Below the pieces are notes generated by a model. It had not been told where the DNA came from. It did not search any database and saw nothing but the letters and a program-made list of their open reading frames with translations. A program made the translations under genes and the position numbers. Of a stretch of 64,000 nucleotides of DNA, positions 22,268 through 32,554 are shown piece after piece (the first letter of the stretch is position 1; the number at the start of each line of letters is the position of its first letter). The DNA is from an uncultured Planctomycetia bacterium (GTDB lineage: Bacteria > Planctomycetota > Planctomycetia > Pirellulales > Thermoguttaceae): NCBI GenBank assembly GCA_963804825.1, contig CAWDRV010000004.1:271278-335277 (forward strand), in the 5' to 3' direction.

Positions 22268-22299
22268 CAATAAAAACGCCCGGAGCGGTGGCAACCGTT

Positions 22300-23330
22300 C
22301 CGGGCAACCACAACCGGGCTTTCGCCCAATTGCGGGTTCGATGCTTGCATTATAGCGAAAGCCCCCAACAAAGGGAAGGCTTCGCTATGTGCAACGTCGT
22401 GAAACCGGAGCGCCAAAAGCAGGTGCTCCACATGCTGGTGGAGGGCAGTTCAATCCGATCCACGTCGCGCCTTACGGGAATCCATCGGGATACCATTGGT
22501 CGGCTGTTGGTCCGTTTCGGGCAAGGGTGCCGTCGTTTGCTCGATAACCGGTTGCAGGGATTGGCTTTACGGCACCTGGAATTGGACGAAATGTGGACTT
22601 TCGTGCTCAAAAAGGAGGGGCGATTGACCCTGGAAGAGCGCCAGGAGCGTTACGACATTGGGGATATTTACCTATGGACCGCCCTTGACCAGAAAACCAA
22701 GCTGATTCCCGCCTTTTTGGTTGGGAAACGGTCGGCAGACAACGCAAGGCGGTTTCTGCGGGACGTGGCCGGCCGGCTGCGGTTCCCCACGGCCCATGAC
22801 TCCGATCCGCACCACTACCAGCCGGGCGGGTATTCGCTGGTAGTGCAGATTTCCAGCGACGCCTTCCGGGCCTATCCCGAAGCGGTTGACTTGGCTTTCG
22901 GCCCCTATTGCAAATACGGCCAGATCATCAAGAACTATCGCAACGCCGACCAGCCGGGGCGCTATGCTCCCCCGGAGATGGTCGAGACTGAGCGCCGGAG
23001 GGTGTTCGCGTTGAGAGAAGACGAGGAGCGGACAATATGCACGTCCCACGTGGAGCGCCACAACTTGACCGTCCGCACCTTGTTGCGGCGGTTCACTCGC
23101 CTTGCTCTGGGATTCTCCAAAAAACTAGAGAACCTCGAGGCGGCGTGCGCGGCGTTTCTGGCGTACTACAACTTCGTTTGGCGAACCAGATACCCGGATG
23201 ACAGCGGGAAGGCAGGGCGGTATCGTCCGCCGGCCGCGGTCATGGCAGGCGTGGTTTCCAACCTCTGGACATTCACAGACCTGTTCAATCGTGTAATGGG
23301 GTAGAACCGGGCTGTTGTGGAGGCATACAT
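22300..23330 (+). mobile_element. IS1-family insertion sequence
   Basis: Contains an IS1-type transposase. Imperfect terminal inverted repeats around CCACAACCGGGCT (about 22307-22325) and CCGGGCTGTTGTGG (about 23300-23325). Confidence 0.55.
22386..23304 (+). CDS. IS1-family transposase (InsAB-like single ORF)
   Basis: N-terminal HTH IRSTSRLTGIHRDTIGRLL (InsA-like). The C-terminal HVERHNLTVRTLLRRFTRLALGFSKKLENLEAACAAFLAYYNF parallels IS1 InsB [41 protein letters not shown]. Confidence 0.7.
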
Positions 23331-24832: not shown

Positions 24833-24985
24833 TTGGGTCGGTAGCTGAGATGCGGGCACCGACCGAAGGTTGGTCGGCGGCGGCCTGAAAAGCCGCAGAC
24901 GCGGATTCGAGCACCGCCCGACCCACTGCGTGAAACGTGCGCGCGAACCCCTTGCTTCAACTGCGTGGAAGGTGCGCGCTGAGAT

Positions 24986-25059
24986 GGCCTGTTCGTCTAT
25001 CGGTTCGAGGACACCGGCCCTTCAAGCCGGGAAGACGGGTTCGACTCCCGTACGGGCCG
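24986..25059 (+). tRNA. tRNA-Glu(UUC), non-canonical (C33)
   Basis: Acceptor ggcctgt/acgggcc. The D-arm TTCGTCTATCGG resembles bacterial tRNA-Glu. Anticodon stem ccggc/gccgg with loop CCTTCAA. T-arm acggg-TTCGACT-cccgt. Confidence 0.7.
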
Positions 25060-25066
25060 CTGTGGG

Positions 25067-25160
25067 CAGAACGTAGCGAAGCCTGGTTATCGCGCGGGCA
25101 CCGATGCGCAGCATTGGTCCGGGGACCAGGAGACCGGCGGTTCAAATCCGCCCGTTCTGA
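25067..25160 (+). tRNA. tRNA-like, 94 nt, Pro-type D-loop, hairpin repeat where anticodon arm should be (probable pseudo-tRNA)
   Basis: Acceptor cagaacg/cgttctg, T-arm ggcgg-TTCAAAT-ccgcc, D-loop AAGCCTGGTTAT. The interior carries GGGCACCGATGCGCAGCATTGGTCC (array hairpin repeat). No standard anticodon arm. Confidence 0.35.
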
Positions 25161-25168
25161 CTGGATGA

Positions 25169-25241
25169 CGGGATGTAGGGTAGCGGCGAACCCGTGTGTT
25201 CTGGGAACACAAGATCGCAGGTTCGAGTCCTGCCATCCCGA
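25169..25241 (+). tRNA. tRNA-Pro(UGG), non-canonical (C33)
   Basis: Acceptor cgggatg/catcccg. Anticodon stem tgtgt/acaca with loop TCTGGGA. T-arm gcagg-TTCGAGT-cctgc. Confidence 0.65.
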
Positions 25242-25267
25242 CCTGACGGACAACGACGTTGGCACAT

Positions 25268-25339
25268 GGTAGTCGAGGGCCGGTTGCCCAAACCCGGCTG
25301 ATAACCGAGTGGCGCTGAGTTCGACTCTCAGGGCTACCA
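25268..25339 (+). tRNA. tRNA-Ile(GAU) (short D-loop; possible indel)
   Basis: Acceptor ggtagtc/ggctacc. Anticodon loop CTGATAA. T-arm ctgag-TTCGACT-ctcag. The D-arm looks truncated. Confidence 0.6.
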
Positions 25340-25405
25340 CTGGAAAGTGAGGAGCATGACCATGAAGCAAACCCGATGGAAACGCATACGCCCGGCCTGC
25401 ATTTC

Positions 25406-25477
25406 GGGGTCGTGGTGTAACGGCAGCACTCCGGACTTTTAATCCGGTAGGTGAAGGTTCGAGTCCTTTCGGCCCCA
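25406..25477 (+). tRNA. tRNA-Lys(UUU)
   Basis: Acceptor ggggtcg/cggcccc. Anticodon stem ccgga/tccgg with loop CTTTTAA. T-arm gaagg-TTCGAGT-ccttt. Confidence 0.8.
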
Positions 25478-25487
25478 CTCGCCGTGA

Positions 25488-25576
25488 CGGCGCGTAGCTC
25501 AATGGTCAGAGCGGGCCTCTTATAAGGGTCAGGACCACCTGCGGTGGTGCCCAGGGTTCGACTCCCTCCGCGCCCA
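25488..25576 (+). tRNA. tRNA-like with long variable hairpin, anticodon loop CTTATAA (UAU?); anticodon and acceptor ambiguous
   Basis: Canonical D-arm TAGCTCAATGGTCAGAGC. Anticodon stem ggcct/gggtc needs two G-U pairs. Variable hairpin ACCACCTGCGGTGGT. T-loop TTCGACT. The 5' acceptor pairing is imperfect. Confidence 0.4.
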
Positions 25577-25602
25577 CTGCTGCGCGTAACGAAGCAGACG
25601 AC

Positions 25603-25675
25603 GGGACCAAGGTGCTAGCGGCAGCACAGCGGATTCTTAATCCGCCAGGTGAGGGTTCAAGTCCCTCTGGTCCCA
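25603..25675 (+). tRNA. tRNA-Lys(CUU)
   Basis: Acceptor gggacca/tggtccc. D-arm gtgc/gcac. Anticodon stem gcgga/tccgc with loop TTCTTAA. T-arm gaggg-TTCAAGT-ccctc. Confidence 0.8.
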
Positions 25676-25690
25676 CTGATGTGAGCACTG

Positions 25691-25790
25691 GTCCGGGCAC
25701 CGACGCGCAGCGTTGGTCGTGGCGAGGATACCGCACCCGTAATGCGGCGACGAGGGTTCGAGTCCGGGCACCGACGCGAAGCGTTGGTCT
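25691..25790 (+). pseudogene. Pseudo-tRNA: Thr(CGU)-like anticodon arm (loop CCCGTAA, C33) flanked by two copies of the hairpin repeat, T-arm broken
   Basis: A direct repeat GTCCGGGCACCGACGCG[C/A]AGCGTTGGTC sits at both ends. Anticodon stem ccgca/tgcgg. The sequence around GGTTCGAGTCC cannot form a 5-bp T-stem. Confidence 0.35.
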
Positions 25791-25827
25791 GGTGCTCCTG
25801 TTGTTTGACAATTCGGCACACCACGAC

Positions 25828-25917
25828 GCGCCCATGGGGCACCGTCGCGAAGCGATGGTCGCGGCAGCCTGCTGCCTTGCCATGGCAGAAGTGCGGGTTC
25901 GACTCCCGCTGGGCGCT
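25828..25917 (+). tRNA. tRNA-Gly(GCC) with expanded D-region containing the hairpin repeat
   Basis: Acceptor gcgccca/tgggcgc. Anticodon stem ctgcc/ggcag with loop TTGCCAT. T-arm gcggg-TTCGACT-cccgc. 34 nt lie between the acceptor and the anticodon arm, including GGGGCACCGTCGCGAAGCGATGGTC. Confidence 0.5.
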
Positions 25918-25925
25918 TTTCAGCG

Positions 25926-26000
25926 CAGGACGTAGGAAAGCCTGGTATTCCGCGTGCCCCGGGCAGCACGAGATCGCGGGTTCAAATCCCGCCGTCCTGA
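25926..26000 (+). tRNA. tRNA-Pro(CGG)-like, 8-nt anticodon loop CCCGGGCA / C33
   Basis: Acceptor caggacg/cgtcctg. D-loop AAGCCTGGTAT. Anticodon stem cgtgc/gcacg. T-arm gcggg-TTCAAAT-cccgc. Confidence 0.5.
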
Positions 26001-26007
26001 CTTTGAT

Positions 26008-26082
26008 TGCGGTGGGGCCTGTGTTGGCACGGGCGGGCGCTTGTTAAGCGTCATGTCGCAGGTTCGATTCCTGCCACCGCAG
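26008..26082 (+). tRNA. tRNA-Asn(GUU)
   Basis: Acceptor tgcggtg/caccgca. Anticodon stem ggcgc/gcgtc with loop TTGTTAA. Variable loop ATGTC. T-arm gcagg-TTCGATT-cctgc. Confidence 0.7.
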
Positions 26083-26096
26083 CCTGTTGAGAGAAC

Positions 26097-26218
26097 GGAA
26101 GGGCAAGCCGGACCACCGCTTCGCGGCGGTGCCCGCGATGGCAGCCGCCGGGCACCATGCGAAGCATGGTCAGCGGCCGAGCGATGAGCCTTGAGGGTTC
26201 GACTCCCTCTCCTTCCGC
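26097..26218 (+). tRNA. Ser-type tRNA-like element, 122 nt with two hairpin insertions (probable pseudo/unusual tRNA)
   Basis: Acceptor ggaaggg/tccttcc (Ser-like), T-arm gaggg-TTCGACT-ccctc. The interior contains CACCGCTTCGCGGCGGTG (UUCG hairpin) and GGGCACCATGCGAAGCATGGTC (array repeat). Confidence 0.3.
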
Positions 26219-26223
26219 CTGCT

Positions 26224-26312
26224 GTGCCCTTGGCCGGCCGGCAGAGGTGCCAGCCTTCCAAGCTGGCGCGACCAACCTTCGGTCGGTGCCCGGTTCGACT
26301 CCCACAGGGCAC
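26224..26312 (+). tRNA. tRNA-Gly(UCC)-like with reverse-orientation hairpin repeat in variable region, defective T-arm (pseudo)
   Basis: Acceptor gtgccct/agggcac. Anticodon stem ccagc/gctgg with loop CTTCCAA, followed by GCGCGACCAACCTTCGGTCGGTGCCC. Relative to the paralog at 27439 it lacks about 18 nt, so the T-stem cannot pair. Confidence 0.35.
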
Positions 26313-26327
26313 TCTCAGCGATGACGA

Positions 26328-26398
26328 TCGGGGATCAGCTAGTGGCAGGCTTCCTGGCTTTGAACCAGGCAACGGAGGTTCAACCCCTCCTCCCCGAG
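26328..26398 (+). tRNA. tRNA-Gln(UUG)
   Basis: Acceptor tcgggga/tccccga (U1-A72 as in bacterial Gln). Anticodon stem cctgg/ccagg with loop CTTTGAA. T-arm ggagg-TTCAACC-cctcc. Confidence 0.75.
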
Positions 26399-26435
26399 CT
26401 TGCAGCCGGCGAGCCGTGTCTCGTCACGCAAACGA

Positions 26436-26506
26436 TGCGGAGTCATCTAACGGTAGGATGAGACTCTCTGAAGGTCTTCATGTTGGTTCAACTCCAGCCT
26501 CCGCAG
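26436..26506 (+). tRNA. tRNA-Gln(CUG)
   Basis: Acceptor tgcggag/ctccgca. D-stem catc/gatg. Anticodon stem agact/ggtct with loop CTCTGAA. T-arm gttgg-TTCAACT-ccagc. Confidence 0.7.
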
Positions 26507-26515
26507 CTTGATAAC

Positions 26516-26601
26516 GGAAGCCATCCGGCCGGATGAGGAGCCTGTCTTGAAAACAGGTGGCGGCCCGACGCCGCTTGTGGGTTCGAGTCCCACGGCTTCC
26601 G
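26516..26601 (+). tRNA. tRNA-Ser(UGA)
   Basis: Acceptor ggaagcc/ggcttcc. Anticodon stem cctgt/acagg with loop CTTGAAA. Long variable arm TGGCGGCCCGACGCCGCT. T-arm gtggg-TTCGAGT-cccac. Confidence 0.75.
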
Positions 26602-26606
26602 CCTTT

Positions 26607-26677
26607 GGGGTCATGGTCCAACAGGACGACGCCAGCTCCGCACGCTGGAGATCCGGGTGCGACTCCCGGTGACTCCA
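26607..26677 (+). tRNA. tRNA-Ala(CGC), non-canonical (C33, T-loop TGCGACT), G3-U70 present
   Basis: Acceptor ggggtca/tgactcc gives G3-U70 and discriminator A. Anticodon stem ccagc/gctgg with loop TCCGCAC. T-arm ccggg-TGCGACT-cccgg. Confidence 0.65.
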
Positions 26678-26689
26678 CTGTAGAAACAT

Positions 26690-26761
26690 AGCCCCGTGGT
26701 CCAACGGCAACGACGCTTGGTCCACACCCAGGAAACGATGGTTCGACTCCATCCGGGGCTA
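26690..26761 (+). tRNA. tRNA-Val(CAC), non-canonical (C33)
   Basis: Acceptor agccccg/cggggct. D-arm GTCCAACGGCAACGAC. Anticodon stem cttgg/ccagg with loop TCCACAC. T-arm gatgg-TTCGACT-ccatc. Confidence 0.65.
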
Positions 26762-26765
26762 CTGC

Positions 26766-26839
26766 GGCTCGGTAGGCAACCGGCAGACCACCTTGGCTTA
26801 GAACCAGGGATGCTGTGGGTTCGACTCCCACCTGAGCCA
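26766..26839 (+). tRNA. tRNA with anticodon UAG (Leu) on a class-I body (short variable loop), non-canonical
   Basis: Acceptor ggctcgg/ctgagcc, discriminator A. Anticodon stem cttgg/ccagg with loop CTTAGAA. Variable loop GATGC. T-arm gtggg-TTCGACT-cccac. Confidence 0.55.
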
Positions 26840-26853
26840 CTGTGAACGACCCT

Positions 26854-26928
26854 GCCCTCGTGGAGCAGCCTGGAGTGCTCGCCTGCCTGTCACGCAGGAG
26901 ATCGCGGGTCCAAATCCCGTCGAGGGCG
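26854..26928 (+). tRNA. tRNA-Asp(GUC) (T-loop TCCAAAT, C54)
   Basis: Acceptor gccctcg/cgagggc, discriminator G. D-stem gagc/gctc. Anticodon stem cctgc/gcagg with loop CTGTCAC. T-arm gcggg-TCCAAAT-cccgt. Confidence 0.7.
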
Positions 26929-26942
26929 CTTTCAAGTATGAC

Positions 26943-27017
26943 GGCGCGGTACGCAAATCGGCAAAGCGGTCAAGCTCAAACCTTGGTGATCTGCGGGTTC
27001 GACTCCCGCCTGTGCCA
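26943..27017 (+). tRNA. tRNA with anticodon CAA (Leu) on a class-I body, non-canonical
   Basis: Acceptor ggcgcgg/ctgtgcc. D-arm CGCAAATCGGCAAAGCG. Anticodon stem tcaag/cttgg with loop CTCAAAC. Short variable loop. T-arm gcggg-TTCGACT-cccgc. Confidence 0.5.
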
Positions 27018-27028
27018 CTGGAAACCAT

Positions 27029-27112
27029 GCGTCAACTGGGCATCGGCGAGCCCAACTGCCCGTAAAACAGCCAGCCCGAAAGGCTATGCAGGTTCGACTC
27101 CTGCCCGGCGCA
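27029..27112 (+). tRNA. Class-II-like tRNA element, anticodon arm degenerate (loop CCCGTAAAA), acceptor mismatched (probable pseudo/chimera)
   Basis: D-arm GGGCATCGGCGAGCCC. Variable hairpin AGCCCGAAAGGCT. T-arm gcagg-TTCGACT-cctgc. The 5' gcgtcaa does not fully pair with the 3' ccggcgc. Confidence 0.3.
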
Positions 27113-27122
27113 CTGACAACAT

Positions 27123-27195
27123 GGCCCGTTCGTCTATCGGCCAAGGACACCGGCCCCTCACGCCGGAAAGGCGGGTTCAATTCCCGCACGGGCTG
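27123..27195 (+). tRNA. tRNA-Glu(CUC), non-canonical (C33)
   Basis: Paralog of 24986. Acceptor ggcccgt/acgggct. Anticodon stem ccggc/gccgg with loop CCCTCAC. T-arm gcggg-TTCAATT-cccgc. Confidence 0.65.
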
Positions 27196-27202
27196 CTGAC
27201 AT

Positions 27203-27284
27203 GACCAAGTGGCGCAACTGGTAGACGCGCGACGCTCAGAACGTCGTGCCGCAAGGCATGGGAGTTCGAATCTCCCCTTGGTCA
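27203..27284 (+). tRNA. tRNA-Leu(CAG), class II
   Basis: Acceptor gaccaag/cttggtc, discriminator A. D-arm GGCGCAACTGGTAGACGCG. Anticodon stem cgacg/cgtcg with loop CTCAGAA. Variable hairpin TGCCGCAAGGCAT. T-arm gggag-TTCGAAT-ctccc. Confidence 0.75.
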
Positions 27285-27295
27285 CTGAGGAATTG

Positions 27296-27362
27296 CAGGC
27301 GCGGCAGGTGCCCAACTGGCTCCCATAAGGCCGGTGCGCCCGGCTCGATACCGGGGCCTGCA
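27296..27362 (+). tRNA. Degenerate tRNA-like element, anticodon loop CCCATAA (CAU, C33)
   Basis: Acceptor tgcaggc/gcctgca. T-arm cccgg-CTCGATA-ccggg. The interior is only 38 nt, with a 4-bp anticodon stem ggct/ggcc. Confidence 0.3.
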
Positions 27363-27364
27363 AC

Positions 27365-27429
27365 TGCGGGTGGGCCAGTGCTCAGCCGGGCCCCATAAGC
27401 CTGGACCGCCGGGCGCAACACCCGGACCC
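27365..27429 (+). tRNA. Degenerate tRNA-like element, anticodon loop CCCATAA (CAU, C33), 1-72 mismatch
   Basis: T-arm ccggg-CGCAACA-cccgg. Acceptor tgcgggt/acccgcc has a T1xC72 mismatch. Anticodon stem gggc/gcct. Confidence 0.25.
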
Positions 27430-27438
27430 GCCACTTGC

Positions 27439-27530
27439 GACCGGGTACGCAAATTGGCATAGCGGCGCGACCAACCTTCGGTCGGTGCCCGAGAGCCTCG
27501 TGCCTGTGGGTTCGACTCCCACCTCGGTCA
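27439..27530 (+). tRNA. Class-II-like tRNA with reverse-orientation hairpin repeat occupying the anticodon-arm position (loop AACCTTC)
   Basis: Acceptor gaccggg/ctcggtc. D-arm CGCAAATTGGCATAGCG. The anticodon-position segment CGACC-AACCTTC-GGTCG is part of GCGCGACCAACCTTCGGTCGGTGCCC. Variable arm GAGAGCCTCGTGCC. T-arm gtggg-TTCGACT-cccac. Confidence 0.4.
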
Positions 27531-27544
27531 CTGACAAGGAAAAC

Positions 27545-27617
27545 GATCCCGTGGTCCAACGGCGAAGACGCCTGGGTGACAACCAGGAAAGCGATGGTTC
27601 GACTCCATCCGGGATCA
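27545..27617 (+). tRNA. tRNA-Val(GAC)
   Basis: Acceptor gatcccg/cgggatc. D-arm GTCCAACGGCGAAGAC. Anticodon stem cctgg/ccagg with loop GTGACAA. T-arm gatgg-TTCGACT-ccatc. Confidence 0.7.
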
Positions 27618-27711
27618 TGTTGGAAAAACGGTCTGTAGGTGTTTCGGCAGCACACCTCCTCGGTAAAGAGGAAGACCCGGTTCATCTCCGGGACGGACCT
27701 CTTGATGATGC

Positions 27712-27782
27712 GGGCCGCTGGTCCAACGGGAAGACGCTTGGTTTGCACCCAGGCAATCGGGGTTCGATTCCCCGGCGGTCCA
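27712..27782 (+). tRNA. tRNA-Ala(UGC)
   Basis: Acceptor gggccgc/gcggtcc with G3-U70, discriminator A. Anticodon stem cttgg/ccagg with loop TTTGCAC. T-arm cgggg-TTCGATT-ccccg. Confidence 0.8.
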
Positions 27783-27791
27783 CTGAAATAC

Positions 27792-27879
27792 GGAAGGTAG
27801 CCGGATACCGGGTTGCCGGGCCGCCCCGCTAAGGCGGTTCTCCCCTGTGGAGATGAGGGTTCAACTCCCTTGCCTTCCG
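27792..27879 (+). tRNA. tRNA-Ser(GCU), class II, non-canonical (C33)
   Basis: Acceptor ggaaggt/gccttcc, discriminator G. Anticodon stem ccgcc/ggcgg with loop CCGCTAA. Variable hairpin TCTCC-CCTGT-GGAGA. T-arm gaggg-TTCAACT-ccctt. Confidence 0.65.
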
Positions 27880-27898
27880 CTTGGTGTGTCGGGTTGAC

Positions 27899-27969
27899 GC
27901 CCCGATAGTGAAACGGAAATCATGCCTCGCTTCTAACGAGGCGATCCAGGTTCAACTCCTGGTCGGGGT
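27899..27969 (+). tRNA. tRNA-Arg(UCU)
   Basis: Acceptor gccccga/tcggggt. Anticodon stem cctcg/cgagg with loop CTTCTAA. T-arm ccagg-TTCAACT-cctgg. Confidence 0.75.
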
Positions 27970-27990
27970 GCTGGCGGAGACAGTTATATA

Positions 27991-28066
27991 TGGTGTCCGT
28001 GGTGTAGCGGTTCCTGCACGCCTGGCTGTGAACCAGGAGGTAGGGGTTCGATTCCCCTCGGATACC
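27991..28066 (+). tRNA. tRNA-His(GUG) with encoded G-1 and C73
   Basis: G at -1, acceptor gtgtccg/cggatac, discriminator C. Anticodon stem cctgg/ccagg with loop CTGTGAA. T-arm agggg-TTCGATT-cccct. Confidence 0.8.
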
Positions 28067-28096
28067 CCTGGGGAGAATTGTGGGAAGGAGAACGTT

Positions 28097-28693
28097 ATGG
28101 TCACCAAGGTACTCCAGCGGCCGACGCTGGTGCTGAACCGCAACTGGCAGCCGGTGAACGTCGCCACCGTGACGCGGGCACTGGTGCTGCTGTGGAACGA
28201 GTCTGCGCGCGTCGTGGACCCGGCCGACTACCAGCTCTACACCTGGGCCGACTGGGCCAAGCTGCGGCCGGGCAACGGCGAGGACTGCATCCAGGCGGTG
28301 AGGTTCAAGCTGCGGGTGCCGGAAGTGGTCGCACTGAGCGGCTACGATCGGCTGCCGACGGCCCACGTGACCTTCAGCCGCCGGAACATTTTCAAGCGGG
28401 ACCACTACACCTGCCAGTACTGCGGCGCCCAGCCGGGCAGCGATGAACTGACGCTGGACCACGTCCTGCCGCGTTCCCAGGGTGGCGTGTCGGGTTGGGG
28501 GAACTGCGTGCTGGCCTGTGTGGCCTGCAACAAGCGGAAGGCCGATCGGACACCGGAGCAAGCACGGATGCACCTGCGCCGTAAGCCGGTCCGGCCGACG
28601 TGGAAGCCGCTCTATGCGGATCACGAGGTGCGGATCGAGAGCTGGTCGAAGTTCGTCAGCGAAGCGTACTGGAACGTAAGGCTTGAGACCTGA
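28097..28693 (+). CDS. HNH endonuclease
   Basis: ATG at 28097 with RBS GGAAGGAGAA. HNH motif CQYCGAQPGSDELTLDHVLPRSQGG...NCVLACVACNKRK. 198 aa. Embedded in the tRNA array; the larger listed ORF 27881..28693 overlaps tRNAs and is spurious. Confidence 0.8.
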   Translation: MVTKVLQRPTLVLNRNWQPVNVATVTRALVLLWNESARVVDPADYQLYTWADWAKLRPGNGEDCIQAVRFKLRVPEVVALSGYDRLPTAHVTFSRRNIFKRDHYTCQYCGAQPGSDELTLDHVLPRSQGGVSGWGNCVLACVACNKRKADRTPEQARMHLRRKPVRPTWKPLYADHEVRIESWSKFVSEAYWNVRLET

Positions 28694-28736
28694 GACCTGA
28701 GACCTGAGACCTGAGGCTTGAGGCTTGAGTGGTGAG
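28681..28736. repeat. Tandem heptad repeats (GCTTGAG/ACCTGAG x8)
   Basis: gcttgag acctgag acctgag acctgag acctgag gcttgag gcttgag tggtgag overlaps the HNH stop codon. An inverted complement array lies at 29117-29196. Confidence 0.7.
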
Positions 28737-28740
28737 GAAG

Positions 28741-29121
28741 TTAGGCACTTCGGCGAAGAGACCGCACTAGACCTGCCAGGACCTTTGCGGTCTCGTCCGC
28801 CTGTTGTGCGACTTTCTGGGCGGCATCGTCCGGCACGTATCCTAGGCGATGAGCGACCGTAAGCTGGTACTGGACCTCACGCGATGAACCAAACGCCATG
28901 TCGAGAAAACGAATGTAGTCGGCCTGCGAGTGCCTGGCGCAGCCCTCGACGATATTCGAGGCAATGGAGATTGCGGCACGACGCAATTGGATGGTCAGTC
29001 CGAACTGCTCCTGCCTAGGAAATGTCTTGGTAATTGAATAGATCGACAGAACAAGATTGTCGGCTAACTCGAACGCACGGAGTTTTCGATGGTCTCGCAT
29101 CGCTGTATTGTGCCACTTCAA
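28741..29121 (-). CDS. Four-helix-bundle protein (23S rRNA intervening-sequence protein family, TIGR02436-like)
   Basis: MRDHRKLRAFELADNLVLSIYSITKTFPRQEQFGLTIQLRRAAISIASNIVEGCARHSQADYIRFLDMAFGSSREVQYQL matches the conserved family pattern (FGLTSQLRRAA.SI..NIAEG). The start may be the Met at 29100 rather than 29121. Confidence 0.7.
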   Translation of the reverse strand: MKWHNTAMRDHRKLRAFELADNLVLSIYSITKTFPRQEQFGLTIQLRRAAISIASNIVEGCARHSQADYIRFLDMAFGSSREVQYQLTVAHRLGYVPDDAAQKVAQQADETAKVLAGLVRSLRRSA

Positions 29122-29196
29122 GCCTCACAACTCAAGCCTCAGGCCCCAGGCCTCAAGCCTAAGGCCCCAGGCCTCAAGCCTAAGGCCTCAGGCCTA
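29117..29196. repeat. Tandem heptad/21-bp repeats (CTCAAGC/CTAAGGC/CCCAGGC), inverted complement of the 28681-28736 array
   Basis: caagcctcacaactcaagcctcaggccccaggcctcaagcctaaggccccaggcctcaagcctaaggcctcaggcct. Together with the left array it can form a long imperfect stem around the 4HB gene. Confidence 0.65.
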
Positions 29197-29200
29197 TTAC

Positions 29201-29270
29201 AGGAGTGTCCTCCTGGGAGAGGAAGCGGCCTCCAAAGCCGCTGCACGGGGTTCGAATCCTCGCGCTCCTG
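29201..29270 (+). tRNA. tRNA-Trp(CCA)
   Basis: Acceptor aggagtg/cgctcct, discriminator G. Anticodon stem gcggc/gccgc with loop CTCCAAA. T-arm cgggg-TTCGAAT-cctcg. Confidence 0.75.
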
Positions 29271-29273
29271 CTT

Positions 29274-29345
29274 GCCGACGTGGCCGAAAGGCAAGGCGGC
29301 GGTCCTGTAAACCGCATGATGCTGGTTCGAATCCAGTCGTCGGCT
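29274..29345 (+). tRNA. tRNA-Thr(UGU), non-canonical (C33)
   Basis: Acceptor gccgacg/cgtcggc. D-arm GCCGAAAGGCAAGGC. Anticodon stem gcggt/accgc with loop CCTGTAA. T-arm gctgg-TTCGAAT-ccagt. Confidence 0.6.
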
Positions 29346-29356
29346 TTGGTACGTTT

Positions 29357-29428
29357 GTCCCGATGGTGTAGCGGATCGCACGGGGCTCTCCTAAGGCCCT
29401 GGCCCTGGTTCGACTCCAGGTCGGGACA
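29357..29428 (+). tRNA. tRNA-Arg(CCU)
   Basis: Acceptor gtcccga/tcgggac. D-arm GTGTAGCGGATCGCAC. Anticodon stem gggct/ggccc with loop CTCCTAA. T-arm cctgg-TTCGACT-ccagg. Confidence 0.75.
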
Positions 29429-29434
29429 CTATTC

Positions 29435-29506
29435 GTCTCGATGGTGTAGCGGATCGCATAGGACCCTCCGAAGGTCCAGGTCCAGGTTCGACTCCTGGTC
29501 GAGACA
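29435..29506 (+). tRNA. tRNA-Arg(CCG)
   Basis: Acceptor gtctcga/tcgagac. Anticodon stem ggacc/ggtcc with loop CTCCGAA. T-arm ccagg-TTCGACT-cctgg. Confidence 0.75.
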
Positions 29507-29509
29507 TTT

Positions 29510-29582
29510 GCCCTGCGAGTGTGCCGGATTAGCACGGCAGACTACGAATCTGCAAGACGGGGTTCGATTCCTCGGCGGGGCG
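29510..29582 (+). tRNA. tRNA-Arg(ACG)
   Basis: Acceptor gccctgc/gcggggc, discriminator G. Anticodon stem gcaga/tctgc with loop CTACGAA. T-arm cgggg-TTCGATT-cctcg. Confidence 0.75.
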
Positions 29583-29593
29583 CTGAAACGAAT

Positions 29594-29666
29594 GTCCTCG
29601 GAGTGTGCCGGATAAGCACGCGACCGTGCGAAGGTCGTAGACCAGGTCCAATTCCTGGCGAGGACG
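29594..29666 (+). tRNA. Arg-type tRNA body with anticodon arm CGACC-GTGCGAA-GGTCG (GCG; stem identical to the hairpin-repeat core), T-loop TCCAATT
   Basis: Paralog of 29510 (same D-arm GTGTGCCGGATAAGCAC). Acceptor gtcctcg/cgaggac. Purine at position 32, anticodon GCG. Confidence 0.45.
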
Positions 29667-29690
29667 CTTGACAATTCGGCGCTGGAGCCA
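29667..29690. repeat. Direct repeat DR1 (CTTGACAATTCGGCGCTGGAGCCA): promoter-like TTGACA plus a copy of the first 13 nt of tRNA-Cys
   Basis: 21 of 24 positions identical to 30734-30757, which is the true 5' end of tRNA-Cys. The two repeats flank a 1.04-kb lower-GC insert. Confidence 0.6.
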
Positions 29691-29859
29691 CAGCATAGCA
29701 TTTGGGCGGCGGTCGCCCATCGCAGATGTAAGCGGGCCAACTGGCGCACCCCACCACAATTCGGTGCGACAGCGCATCGTGTCGGGCCATAGCCCGCCCG
29801 AGAATGCGCTAATCTCACTGTGGATAACAAGGGATTCCCAGTCAACGCGGAGAAATGCA

Positions 29860-30738
29860 ATGGCCATCAATTACCAACGAGCGAGTGAACTGCTACTAGA
29901 GACCCAACAAGCAATGCAGTGCGACGAAAGCACGCGTCTGTGCGAAGCGGTGGGCAAGTTGCTGGATGCGCGTCTATGTGGGGCTGATCCTTGGGACTGG
30001 CGCTACAACACCACGCATTGGGCATTGGATGTGGTCAATGTCTGTAAGGAGATCGGGTACAGCGTTGCATGGATGCGAGCGTTGGCTCGCTACTGCTCGG
30101 AGTCGGAGGAGCAGGATCGGCAATCCGTCGAGGGCCTCGTGTCGTATTATGCGGACAACGCTGCAACGAGGATCAGTTCGTGCCGTGACAAACTCGCGCT
30201 CCTTGCATGGTCGTATTATTGCCCATTCAACCCTGACAAGAAGGACGACGTCTTGAGTTTTGAGCAGGTTCACGCCCGATTGACCACCCCGCTTAGGTTC
30301 GGCCTCCACTTCAACGGTCACAATGAGTTCCTCGTCGAACTGAACAAGCTCCTGGGATCAGGCTTTGAAAGGGCTATTGCCTACCGACACAAAAAGGTAC
30401 ATCGCATGGAACCGCGCGTTATGATGCGTAAGCCCGAGGTCCCCGACCAACGATGTTACATGTTTGCGGTAACGACAGAAAAGGACGTTCGCGGATTCGA
30501 CGATAAGCTCAAGAAGATGTACCCAGATGATGGGTTTCGAGCAGAAGTCCGACAGGGGTGCTTCCTCGATGGCGTGCTTTTTGACCGGCGAGCGCCCGAG
30601 GAATTGCTCTGGCACTTCGAGGATTTCGACGGATTCACTTATCCTTGTTGGAAGAGTCTATGTGATGCGACCGCGGGCTCGTGCGAGATACTGTTACGTC
30701 GTGAACCAATGCTTTCAAAGGCTGGCCAAGGCACTTGA
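29860..30738 (+). CDS. Hypothetical protein (cargo of insertion within tRNA array; lower GC)
   Basis: ATG at 29860 with RBS GGAGAAA. 292 aa, no recognisable motifs. About 50% GC against about 65% for the flanks. Confidence 0.5.
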   Translation: MAINYQRASELLLETQQAMQCDESTRLCEAVGKLLDARLCGADPWDWRYNTTHWALDVVNVCKEIGYSVAWMRALARYCSESEEQDRQSVEGLVSYYADNAATRISSCRDKLALLAWSYYCPFNPDKKDDVLSFEQVHARLTTPLRFGLHFNGHNEFLVELNKLLGSGFERAIAYRHKKVHRMEPRVMMRKPEVPDQRCYMFAVTTEKDVRGFDDKLKKMYPDDGFRAEVRQGCFLDGVLFDRRAPEELLWHFEDFDGFTYPCWKSLCDATAGSCEILLRREPMLSKAGQGT

Positions 30739-30757
30739 CAACGTGGCGCTGGAGCCA
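30734..30757. repeat. Direct repeat DR2 (CTTGACAACGTGGCGCTGGAGCCA), overlaps 5' end of tRNA-Cys
   Basis: Matches DR1 at 29667-29690. Confidence 0.6.
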
Positions 30758-30816
30758 GACGGCACGGCGGCTGCCTGCAAAGCAGCTTCAAGTGGGTTCG
30801 ACTCCCACCGGCGCCT
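30745..30816 (+). tRNA. tRNA-Cys(GCA)
   Basis: Acceptor ggcgctg/cggcgcc, discriminator U. D-arm GCCAGACGGCACGGC. Anticodon stem gctgc/gcagc with loop CTGCAAA. T-arm gtggg-TTCGACT-cccac. Confidence 0.8.
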
Positions 30817-30927
30817 TTTTGGAAGCAATGATACGGCCGGGCCAACGGCGCAGCGCCGCCCTGTCCTCCAGCGAGGCGGTCGGCGACGTGCGTTCCGTAC
30901 ATGGGTTCTGACCGATGGTCGTGTCAA

Positions 30928-31000
30928 GCGAGGTTAGCTCAGTGGATAGAGCACCAGACCAATAATCTGGCTGTCGCGGGTTCGACTCCCGTACCAACAC
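30928..31000 (+). pseudogene. Pseudo-tRNA (canonical D-arm TAGCTCAGTGGATAGAGC, loop CCAATAA, 3' acceptor does not pair with 5' end)
   Basis: T-arm gcggg-TTCGACT-cccgt is followed by accaaca, but the 5' acceptor is gcgaggt. Anticodon stem ccaga/tctgg with A34 and C33. Confidence 0.35.
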
Positions 31001-31447
31001 CGCAGGCTAAACCCCTGCTCCAAACGGCCCGCGACCAACGCGGGGCGTTGGTGCCCGGCGGGCCAACGTGTGATCGGCCACCGGCGGCCGAGCGACCGAC
31101 GGCGCCGAGGACTCTGGGCATACTGCCTGTAAGGCAGCGCCCGGAGGAATCGACGCCCAAGGGAGCACACGGTTGTCCGGTGGCAGCACGGCCGAGTGCC
31201 ATGTAGTGCGTGGATACCGCTTCCGCCGGCCTCCGGCAAGCGGCAACGGATGCCTGGCGACTCGCCCCAGGGCTTTGCCCCTTCGGCGACCAGCCCGGCG
31301 GAAACTGCCGCACCGCCGCAGGCTATGCGGATGCTCAAACGACACTCCGCAGTTGTCCGTGTGATCGCCGCTGGCTCCGCCGCCCGACGGCTTTATGAAA
31401 CGCAGACAAGAGCGGCCCACGAAAGGCCGCAGGAAGGAAGGTGAAGG

Positions 31448-32554
31448 ATGTTCGTCATCAAGACCGTCAAGATTCGCAGCTACGAAACGGGCCTGCACTT
31501 CCGTGACGGCGAGTTCAAGGGCCTGCTCGGCGCCGGCCGGCACTGGTTCTTCGACCCGCTGGGCAAGGTCAAGGTGGAGGTCGTCTCGCAGCGCAGCCCG
31601 TGGCTGGCCCACGAGAAGCTCGACGTGATCGTCAAGTCGGGGGCGCTGAAGGACCGCGCCGTGGTGCTGGACCTGAAGGACTACCAGCGGGCCGCTGTGT
31701 GGGTGGACGGCCGGTTCAGCCACATCCTGCCGCCGGGCCTGTACGCCTACTGGACCACCTTCCGCGAGGTCGCCGTCGAGGTGATCGACGCCCGCCGTGT
31801 CCGCTTCGAGCACAAGGACCTCCAGGTGATCGTCCGCTCGGCGCTGGCCGATCGGCTGCTGGATGCCTTTGCCGTCGAGCAGGGCCACGTCGGCGTGCTG
31901 TTCGAGGACGGCCGCTACGTCGAGACCCTGCCGCCGGGCAAGTACGCCTTCTGGAAGAACATGGCCAAGGTCATGCTCGTGCCGATGGACCTGCGCGAGA
32001 CGATGCTGGACATCGGCGGCCAGGAGATCATGACCGCCGACAAGGTCACGCTCCGCCTGAACGCGGTGGCCACTTACCGGGTGGCCGACGCCCACAAGGC
32101 GCTGAGCGCGGCCGACGACGCCCGCCAGGCCCTGTACCGCGAGGCCCAGTTGGCCCTGCGGGCGGTGATCGGCGGCCGCGAACTCGACCAGTTCCTGGCC
32201 GACAAGGACGCCGTGGCCAAGGAACTGGAGGTCATCGTCCGGCAGCGGGTGGCTGCGCTGGGTCTGGAGGTCATCTCGGTGGGCATCCGCGACGTGATCC
32301 TGCCGGGCGACATGAAGGACCTGATGAACAAGGTCACGGAGGCCAAGAAGGCGGCCGAGGCCAACCTGATCGTTCGCCGCGAGGAAACCGCGGCCATGCG
32401 CAGCCAGGCCAACACGGCCAAGGTGCTGGAGGGCAACCCGACGCTGATGCGGCTCCGGGAACTGGAAGTCCTGGAGCGGGTCGCCACCAGCGGCAAGCTG
32501 AACGTCGTGCTGGGCGAGAAGGGCCTGGCCGAGCGGGTCGTGAACCTGCTCTGA
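31448..32554 (+). CDS. SPFH/band-7 domain protein
   Basis: 368 aa. A hairpin terminator follows at 32562-32600. Confidence 0.75.
   Translation: MFVIKTVKIRSYETGLHFRDGEFKGLLGAGRHWFFDPLGKVKVEVVSQRSPWLAHEKLDVIVKSGALKDRAVVLDLKDYQRAAVWVDGRFSHILPPGLYAYWTTFREVAVEVIDARRVRFEHKDLQVIVRSALADRLLDAFAVEQGHVGVLFEDGRYVETLPPGKYAFWKNMAKVMLVPMDLRETMLDIGGQEIMTADKVTLRLNAVATYRVADAHKALSAADDARQALYREAQLALRAVIGGRELDQFLADKDAVAKELEVIVRQRVAALGLEVISVGIRDVILPGDMKDLMNKVTEAKKAAEANLIVRREETAAMRSQANTAKVLEGNPTLMRLRELEVLERVATSGKLNVVLGEKGLAERVVNLL

Follow-up and report, generated by a model that had tools for sequence, protein, structure and literature searches.

In a 64,000-nucleotide (nt) stretch of DNA from an uncultured Planctomycetia bacterium (GenBank assembly GCA_963804825.1, contig CAWDRV010000004.1), referred to as a whole as the window, a long tRNA gene array is interrupted between tRNA-Arg(GCG) and tRNA-Cys(GCA) by an insert carrying a HEPN-superfamily gene. 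A duplication of the tRNA junction flanks this conserved gene, and in relatives the same junction is empty or holds a different HEPN gene. The explanation that we favor, and consider probable, is that the insert is an old, patchily distributed HEPN accessory cassette in a polymorphic Arg(GCG)|Cys(GCA) slot of an HNH-associated array, with a genuine duplication of the junction; it would have entered or been exchanged through recombination between flanking tRNA sequences, would be co-transcribed with the tRNA operon, and would encode a stress or anti-phage ribonuclease (RNase). A preliminary description made from the sequence alone proposed a site-specific insertion; an event of this type driven by an integrase is not supported.

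A duplicated tRNA junction flanks the insert

The elements of the junction and the insert are as follows.

29594-29667, forward strand: tRNA-Arg(GCG), the last tRNA ahead of the insert, called by ARAGORN; its 3' end opens the left repeat
29655-29690, forward strand: left junction copy, consisting of the live tRNA-Arg 3' end, a spacer (29667-29677) and an orphan 13-nt tRNA-Cys start (29678-29690); identified by repeat search, shuffle-tested alignment and pattern search
29691-29859, forward strand: cassette leader, with GGAG 8 nt upstream of the ATG; its 3' half is homologous to the leaders of related loci L004 and L001
29860-30738, forward strand: HEPN-superfamily gene (Cthe_2314-like) for a 292-amino-acid protein, a putative RNase
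30385-30402, forward strand: codons of the Rx4H motif, R176-H-K-K-V-H181, invariant in a 26-sequence alignment
30722-30757, forward strand: right junction copy, consisting of a decayed tRNA-Arg 3'-end remnant that codes for the tail of the open reading frame (ORF; AGQGT and TGA), a spacer (30734-30744) and the first 13 nt of the live tRNA-Cys
30745-30816, forward strand: intact tRNA-Cys(GCA), called by ARAGORN and matched by the Rfam tRNA model at 47.8 bits; it begins 6 nt past the ORF stop

The preliminary description reported CTTGACAATTCGGCGCTGGAGCCA at 29667-29690 and a second copy, identical at 21 of 24 positions, at 30734-30757. Both are present as reported, no other site in the window matches the left 24-mer with three or fewer mismatches, and none of 100 shuffled controls yields two matches to it. 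It was also correct that the right copy is the genuine start of tRNA-Cys (the 11-nt spacer followed by tRNA positions 1-13, from ARAGORN and Rfam) and that the left copy is an orphan directly after tRNA-Arg(GCG). However, the similarity is not limited to these 24 nt: the longer repeat spans 36 nt (29655-29690 versus 30722-30757, 81% identical; repeat family D18), with a local alignment score of 37 where none of 300 shuffles exceeds 25, and it contains the 3' end of tRNA-Arg(GCG), the 11-nt spacer, and positions 1-13 of tRNA-Cys(GCA). The extra 12 nt are the tRNA-Arg 3' end in the left copy and the final ORF codons in the right copy; because they derive from the tRNA-Arg 3' end, the duplicated unit is the Arg|Cys junction and not the tRNA-Cys start alone. 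The last five ORF codons and the TGA stop (30736-30738, inside CTTGACA) fall within the right repeat, whereas the ORF had been described as ending exactly at it.

That two GC-rich stretches resemble each other by chance has a probability close to nil. Only the short length of the repeat speaks for it; the shuffle tests above, together with the recurrence of the same feature in the same place in loci L016, L004, L018, and L003, refute it.

The insert of 1.04 kb (29691-30721 or 30733) has a GC content of 55.3%, compared with 63.0% for the window; the earlier figure of about 50% was too low. The GC content at third codon positions (GC3) of its ORF is 0.63, versus 0.88 in the neighboring HNH gene and 0.95 in the neighboring Band_7 gene. 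The composition of the insert looks foreign.

Two observations concern the sequence of the repeat and the tRNAs next to it. The array contains two exact copies of the 13-mer TTGACAATTCGGC, at 25805-25817 and 29668-29680 (about 0.002 expected by our own rough estimate). A related sequence had been placed at 25803; a second exact copy does exist, but its position is 25805-25817, upstream of tRNA-Gly(GCC) in a region of hairpin elements and tRNA debris. The related ACAATTCGG is found at 29758-29766. Both tRNA-Arg(ACG) (29510-29583) and tRNA-Arg(GCG) were called by ARAGORN and score below the Rfam tRNA gathering score; both are kept in related arrays, and their sequences may be atypical for tRNA-Arg.

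The insert encodes a putative HEPN RNase

As the preliminary description stated, the insert carries one 292-codon ORF (29860-30738), the only sizeable one with homologues. Its product, previously listed as being of unknown function, can probably be assigned to the Cthe_2314-like HEPN family, although the window protein itself scores 25.5 bits (E value 1.5e-5) against the Pfam model PF18730 (HEPN_Cthe2314), whose gathering cut-off, 27.1 bits, lies just above. The model is matched by 25 of the 26 aligned family members at E values of 1e-3 or below (best, 5.4e-9), and most homologues carry a precomputed PF18730 hit. A large protein collection yielded 29 homologues, and the named sources are Planctomycete bins.

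R176 and H181, in the segment YRHKKVHRMEP, are invariant across the 26 aligned homologues and conform to the Rx4-6H motif of HEPN proteins. The AlphaFold model is confident (predicted local distance difference test score, 87.6) and shows the all-alpha helical bundle of the HEPN fold together with an additional C-terminal alpha/beta region (residues ~186-280); the protein tail beyond a conserved "..SK" varies between family members. With its Rx4H motif intact, the protein is a putative RNase of the metal-independent kind, and it may serve as a stress or defense RNase co-expressed with spare tRNAs.

No match to the window protein was found among the PADLOC and NCBIfam models, and a sequence search of the PDB was also empty. 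Membership in the AbiV family (TIGR04498) was rejected on the absence of an NCBIfam or PADLOC match and of any significant BLASTP similarity to the AbiV protein of locus L033 (see below). A HEPN-MNT toxin-antitoxin pair was likewise rejected: there is no MNT (nucleotidyltransferase) antitoxin gene beside the ORF, as the insert holds no second gene and its neighbors are tRNA genes.

The Arg|Cys slot in related arrays

The checks suggested in the preliminary description included a comparison with relatives that have empty sites and a search for the ORF beside other tRNA genes, and loci of both kinds were found. Seven other arrays carry the HEPN gene after tRNA-Arg(GCG), in the same orientation, with proteins 66-88% identical to that of the window; five of the seven keep an intact downstream tRNA-Cys(GCA). 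The distance from the stop codon to tRNA-Cys, 6 nt in the window, is 20-98 nt in the other arrays. Loci are listed below with HEPN protein identity to the window and the agreement between the left copy and the tRNA-Cys of the same locus, or with the tRNA-Arg(GCG) to tRNA-Cys spacer at empty sites.

Window: 13 tRNA positions, inside the 36-nt repeat
L016: 88%; left copy matches at 23 of 24 positions
L004 (also L005 and L006): 73%; 14 of 15
L018: 71%; 35 of 35, ending at CTGC of the anticodon loop
L019: 69%; no match
L003: 69%; downstream tRNA-Cys lost; tRNA-Arg(GCG) read from the sequence, without an ARAGORN call
L040: 66%; no match; a second ORF shares the slot and tRNA-Cys is disrupted
L039: empty, 11 nt; tRNA order Trp-Thr-Arg(CCT)-Arg(CCG)-Arg(ACG)-Arg(GCG)-Cys, identical to the window
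L035: empty, 10 nt
L038: empty, 4 nt
L037: empty, 119 nt

L032 has a 25-nt spacer, and its tRNA-Cys is fused to a downstream element. In L033 an AbiV-family HEPN gene (TIGR04498, 71.9 bits; cut-off 27) lies between tRNA-Arg(ACG) and tRNA-Cys; this slot has no flanking repeat, and tRNA-Arg(GCG) is absent.

Arrays that lack the HEPN gene have HNH proteins 85% (L033), 84% (L032), 83% (L034), and 80% (L035) identical to that of the window; the corresponding values for HEPN carriers are 79% (L018), 76% (L004), and 73% (L019). Judged by these identities, the presence of the HEPN gene is patchy relative to the arrays' own genes. The gene is also found away from tRNAs, in L001, L007, L008, L009, L020, and all of the ~40%-identity homologues. 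The non-array copy L001 is the sister of the array copy L004 in the tree (83% identical), and the stretch shared by these two loci comprises the leader and the ORF only, from GATTCA(G/C)TGTGGC to two bases beyond the stop. The arrangement is evidently old, because it is common to arrays whose HEPN proteins are only 66-88% identical, and it appears to have since been lost, replaced, or exchanged among arrays.

Origin of the duplication

According to the explanation we favor, entry of the cassette would have duplicated the Arg|Cys junction. In the left copy the working tRNA-Arg 3' end would then precede a dead tRNA-Cys start; in the right copy a dead tRNA-Arg 3' end, which now supplies the ORF with its final codons and stop, would precede the working tRNA-Cys. 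Entry or exchange would proceed by recombination via conserved flanking tRNA sequence, for example with a circle or a second array that carries a copy of tRNA-Cys, and would not be driven by a recombinase encoded in the insert. The flanking repeats would equally permit precise loss, so that the empty sites could predate a gain or result from such a loss.

The insertion proposed in the preliminary description stands in part. An insertion at the junction, a duplication, and empty sites are all there; a site-specific mechanism that regenerates the tRNA, and the recency it implied, are not borne out. Spelled out in full, the proposal is that a small integrative element inserts site-specifically at the tRNA-Cys 5' end and brings along a duplicate of the tRNA start, by which the gene is restored on insertion, as in attP/attB recombination. 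Direct repeats holding a tRNA segment at both ends, relatives with empty sites, the lower GC and GC3 of the insert, and the presence of the cassette at non-tRNA loci are all compatible with such an element. Yet the insert contains no recombinase, integrase, or transposase domain, the HEPN protein being the product of its sole ORF with homologues, and it has no terminal inverted repeats (three short inverted repeats were found, all internal). Without a transposase and terminal inverted repeats, a transposon or insertion sequence with target-site duplication fails as well. Furthermore, non-array copies such as L001 lack the tRNA-Cys fragment, no cassette homologue was found in phage, plasmid, or IMG/VR collections, the arrangement is ancient rather than recent, and the length of the repeat varies between loci. 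Finally, the repeat holds the 5' part of the tRNA, whereas known tRNA-targeting integrases reportedly duplicate the 3' part and not the 5' part, with the intact gene lying upstream of the element. An integrative element of this kind is therefore quite improbable.

Depending on the locus, the duplicated stretch ranges from 0 to at least 35 nt. The preliminary description had named a second tRNA-Cys remnant as an alternative source of the repeat: two full tRNA-Cys genes would once have flanked the HEPN gene, and the left one would have decayed to a pseudogene remnant. Such tandem paralogy is unlikely in our view, but two observations speak for it and so weigh against the explanation we favor. 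First, L018 continues to match tRNA-Cys as far as the anticodon (35 of 35) and, past the break, shows a suggestive match of 16 of 20 positions (p ~0.014) to the 3' end of the T-stem and acceptor plus trailer; this likely remnant in part answers to what the preliminary description had named as refuting its own reading. Second, the left remnants before the shared leader (~78 nt in the window, 66 nt in L018, and 33 nt in L004) would fit varied decay of a tRNA-sized piece. On the other side, in none of the window, L016, and L004 did local alignment find anything significant past the 5' part of tRNA-Cys; for the first two, there is no likeness beyond 13 nt (p ~0.7-0.8). Rfam found no tRNA match in the left flank even at E values up to 10 (window, 29668-29862; L018, 4039-4234). 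The right copy also has the tRNA-Arg 3'-end remnant and the spacer, which indicates that the junction was duplicated and not tRNA-Cys alone, and arrays of the same gene order have a single Cys tRNA.

The orphan tRNA-Cys start could also have been kept for a function, either in marking the 5' end of the HEPN mRNA for processing or recognition or in serving the RNase as a decoy or regulatory substrate; we regard this as very improbable. It is true that GCTGGAGCCA or a close variant follows tRNA-Arg in five lineages whose proteins are ~70% identical, including L003, which has lost tRNA-Cys and still retains GATGGAGCCAGG after tRNA-Arg, and that the left and right copies share lineage-specific bases (GGCGCTG, with G2, in the window; GACGCTG, with A2, in L018). 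These shared bases would fit gene conversion or separate events, and gene conversion from the conserved tRNA-Cys accounts for them equally well. Moreover, the orphan start is missing in L019 and L040, which retain the gene, the length of the fragment is variable, and the folding of the leader is unremarkable (RNA fold z = -0.52). The same z value led us to reject a structured leader RNA.

Expression of the cassette within the array

The TTGACA of the repeats had been taken to resemble a -35 element. No sigma-70-like promoter was called in 29300-31500, L001, or L004, and none uses either TTGACA. No terminator was found in the insert. From this absence, and from the position of the stop codon 6 nt ahead of tRNA-Cys, we infer that the HEPN gene is transcribed within the tRNA operon and that its mRNA would be freed by the tRNA-processing enzymes. 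The RNase might then be a stress or anti-phage effector produced alongside a spare tRNA set.

The host array and known systems

The array and its embedded protein genes outside the insert are as follows.

24835-30816, forward strand: long tRNA array, 35 ARAGORN calls, with embedded protein genes; ARAGORN and Rfam tRNA matches
28094-28693, forward strand: HNH endonuclease gene, a conserved core gene of the array; Pfam HNH/HNH_5 (PF01844/PF14279)
28741-29121, reverse strand: gene for a "23S rRNA intervening sequence protein" (four-helix bundle), inside the array

Previous work has described long tRNA arrays, HNH genes embedded in them, and the HEPN family. Arrays with linked HNH and RNA-processing genes (L-arrays) that spread horizontally have been described (Santamaria-Gomez et al. 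2021, PMC8421152), and Planctomycetes are among the phyla with long tRNA arrays in both that survey and another (Tran et al. 2015, PMC4758250). The array in the window is like these: its 35 tRNAs form a long, closely spaced run on the same strand in ~6 kb, an HNH gene is embedded in it, protein genes lie in and beside it, and in relatives Ro60/TROVE or RtcB follows the array. The gene order is common to L004, L018, L019, L035, L039, and L040. The HNH gene is conserved within related arrays; its product has 5430 homologues at E values of 1e-20 or below, the best 120 sharing 74-95% identity, and every homologue for which a contig was fetched sits inside a comparable tRNA array. What differs is the slot, since the available portions of the two surveys (PMC8421152, PMC4758250) mention neither a HEPN gene inside an array nor a slot that is empty or holds a Cthe_2314-like or AbiV gene. 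A full-text literature search for HEPN genes inside tRNA gene arrays found none.

The genomic islands that tyrosine integrases insert at tRNA genes (attL/attR) likewise have direct repeats with part of a tRNA, one intact and one orphan, and empty sites in relatives. Here, in contrast, there is no integrase, the insert is just 1 kb, and the repeat length differs between lineages; what is duplicated is a tRNA 5' end with the upstream spacer and the 3' end of the neighboring tRNA, and the intact gene lies downstream. A cassette without a recombinase that is bounded by a duplicated tRNA 5' end thus departs from the classic 3'-end pattern of integrases.

The Cthe_2314-like HEPN family (PF18730) was described with the motif present and a genomic context of "none detected" (Anantharaman et al. 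2013, PMC3710099). The window protein resembles the family in its helical HEPN core, conserved Rx4-6H motif, and stand-alone organization, but its sub-clade recurs inside tRNA arrays and has the additional C-terminal alpha/beta region. The HEPN anticodon nucleases PrrC and RloC cut tRNA anticodon loops (PMC3710099). Like them and AbiV, which are linked to phage defense, the window protein belongs to the HEPN superfamily, and in L033 an AbiV-family gene lies just upstream of tRNA-Cys. Unlike them, it has no ATPase or restriction-modification partner at this locus and no PADLOC or NCBIfam defense match, and it shows no detectable similarity to the L033 AbiV protein.

The role of long bacterial tRNA arrays is debated: they may be a backup under translational stress or may buffer the cell against nucleases that target tRNAs. 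HEPN genes from two unrelated families, of which one is an abortive-infection family, are found at the same array junction, and Ro60/RtcB genes follow other arrays; this recurrence of HEPN genes, together with the Ro60/RtcB neighbors, links spare tRNA sets to RNA-cleaving effectors in a concrete way that can be tested. One could speculate, although we think it rather unlikely, that the Arg(GCG)|Cys(GCA) junction is a dedicated docking site for HEPN nucleases (Cthe_2314-like or AbiV) and that nuclease and array form one module, in which an RNA- or tRNA-cutting effector is co-expressed with spare, possibly cleavage-resistant tRNAs. If so, translation could be shut down and then restored, or phage RNA could be attacked while the host tRNA supply is buffered, and the retained 5' fragment of tRNA-Cys could serve in processing or control of the module. 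Our literature search found no description of an array junction that alternates between empty, Cthe_2314-like HEPN, and AbiV, or of a recombinase-free cassette bounded by a duplicated tRNA 5' end.

Other features of the arrays

A second accessory cassette seems to be formed by the gene for the "23S rRNA intervening sequence protein", which has a low GC3 (0.61) and is bracketed by 59-nt inverted repeats (28679-28737 and 29123-29181, 83% complementary) built from the heptamer tandem repeats TGAGACC and CTCAGGC; paired with each other, these flanks could give a long stem that recalls rRNA intervening sequences. By tblastn, L004 and L019 have the gene, and none of the other arrays searched yielded it.

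A Band_7 gene comes after the array, and an IS1-like transposase ORF (DDE_Tnp_IS1 and HTH domains; 22288-23304, forward strand) lies ~1.5 kb upstream of it. No TROVE, RtcB, or AbiV gene is present in the window. RNA-repair and quality-control genes are recurrent beside related arrays: RtcB and RlaP in L039 (6119-7804), TROVE/Ro60 in L034 (8579-10201) and L035 (9042-10655), and likewise a Ro60/TROVE gene after the array in L040. In L037 (2724-4241), dnaA is found ~1.7 kb upstream of a short array.

A hairpin element of 21-25 nt (GGGCACCGAC-loop-GTTGGTCC, in either orientation) is scattered in tRNA arrays and nearly confined to them. Its copies in the window are at 24854-24876, 25096-25120, 25532-25552, 25695-25719, 25766-25790, 25837-25861, 26110-26134, 26269-26291, 27468-27490, and 31032-31056, and it also occurs in L004, L018, L032, L034, L035, L036, L038, and L040. 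Several of the hairpins interrupt tRNA genes, at the D-loop in tRNA-Phe and at the variable region in tRNA-Ile(TAT), tRNA-Gly(TCC), and tRNA-Val(AAC), which explains the "long" tRNAs of 90-95 nt reported by ARAGORN. In L040, the anticodon loop of tRNA-Cys has a hairpin immediately past its CTGC, and the gene then escapes tRNA calling. Possibly, these copies represent a miniature mobile hairpin that is specific to such arrays.

In most arrays tRNA-Cys is followed by a conserved structured element of ~280 nt, located at 30817-31110 in the window (tRNA-like core, 30932-30995), 8965-9250 in L004, 3029-3300 in L033, 2400-2680 in L039, 5217-5520 in L018, 9044-9330 in L019, and 7159-7460 in L038. Its long 5' hairpin shows compensatory changes and is accompanied by a cloverleaf that resembles a tRNA (Rfam tRNA, 45.6 bits, model positions 5-66 only). 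The acceptor stem of this cloverleaf has only 3 bp and its anticodon loop is variable and non-canonical; depending on the locus, ARAGORN calls it as Leu, Glu, or "???". Because Ro60/TROVE genes follow the arrays of L034, L035, and L040, one possibility is that this element is a Y-RNA/YrlA-like partner RNA; no Rfam Y-RNA model matches it, and there is no TROVE gene in the window. In L032 (8090-8165), tRNA-Cys retains its 5' three-quarters and continues from the T-arm into the 3' end of the tRNA-like element that lies downstream; the fusion is a recombinational deletion between the two T-arms and illustrates how readily such arrays are rearranged via tRNA homology.
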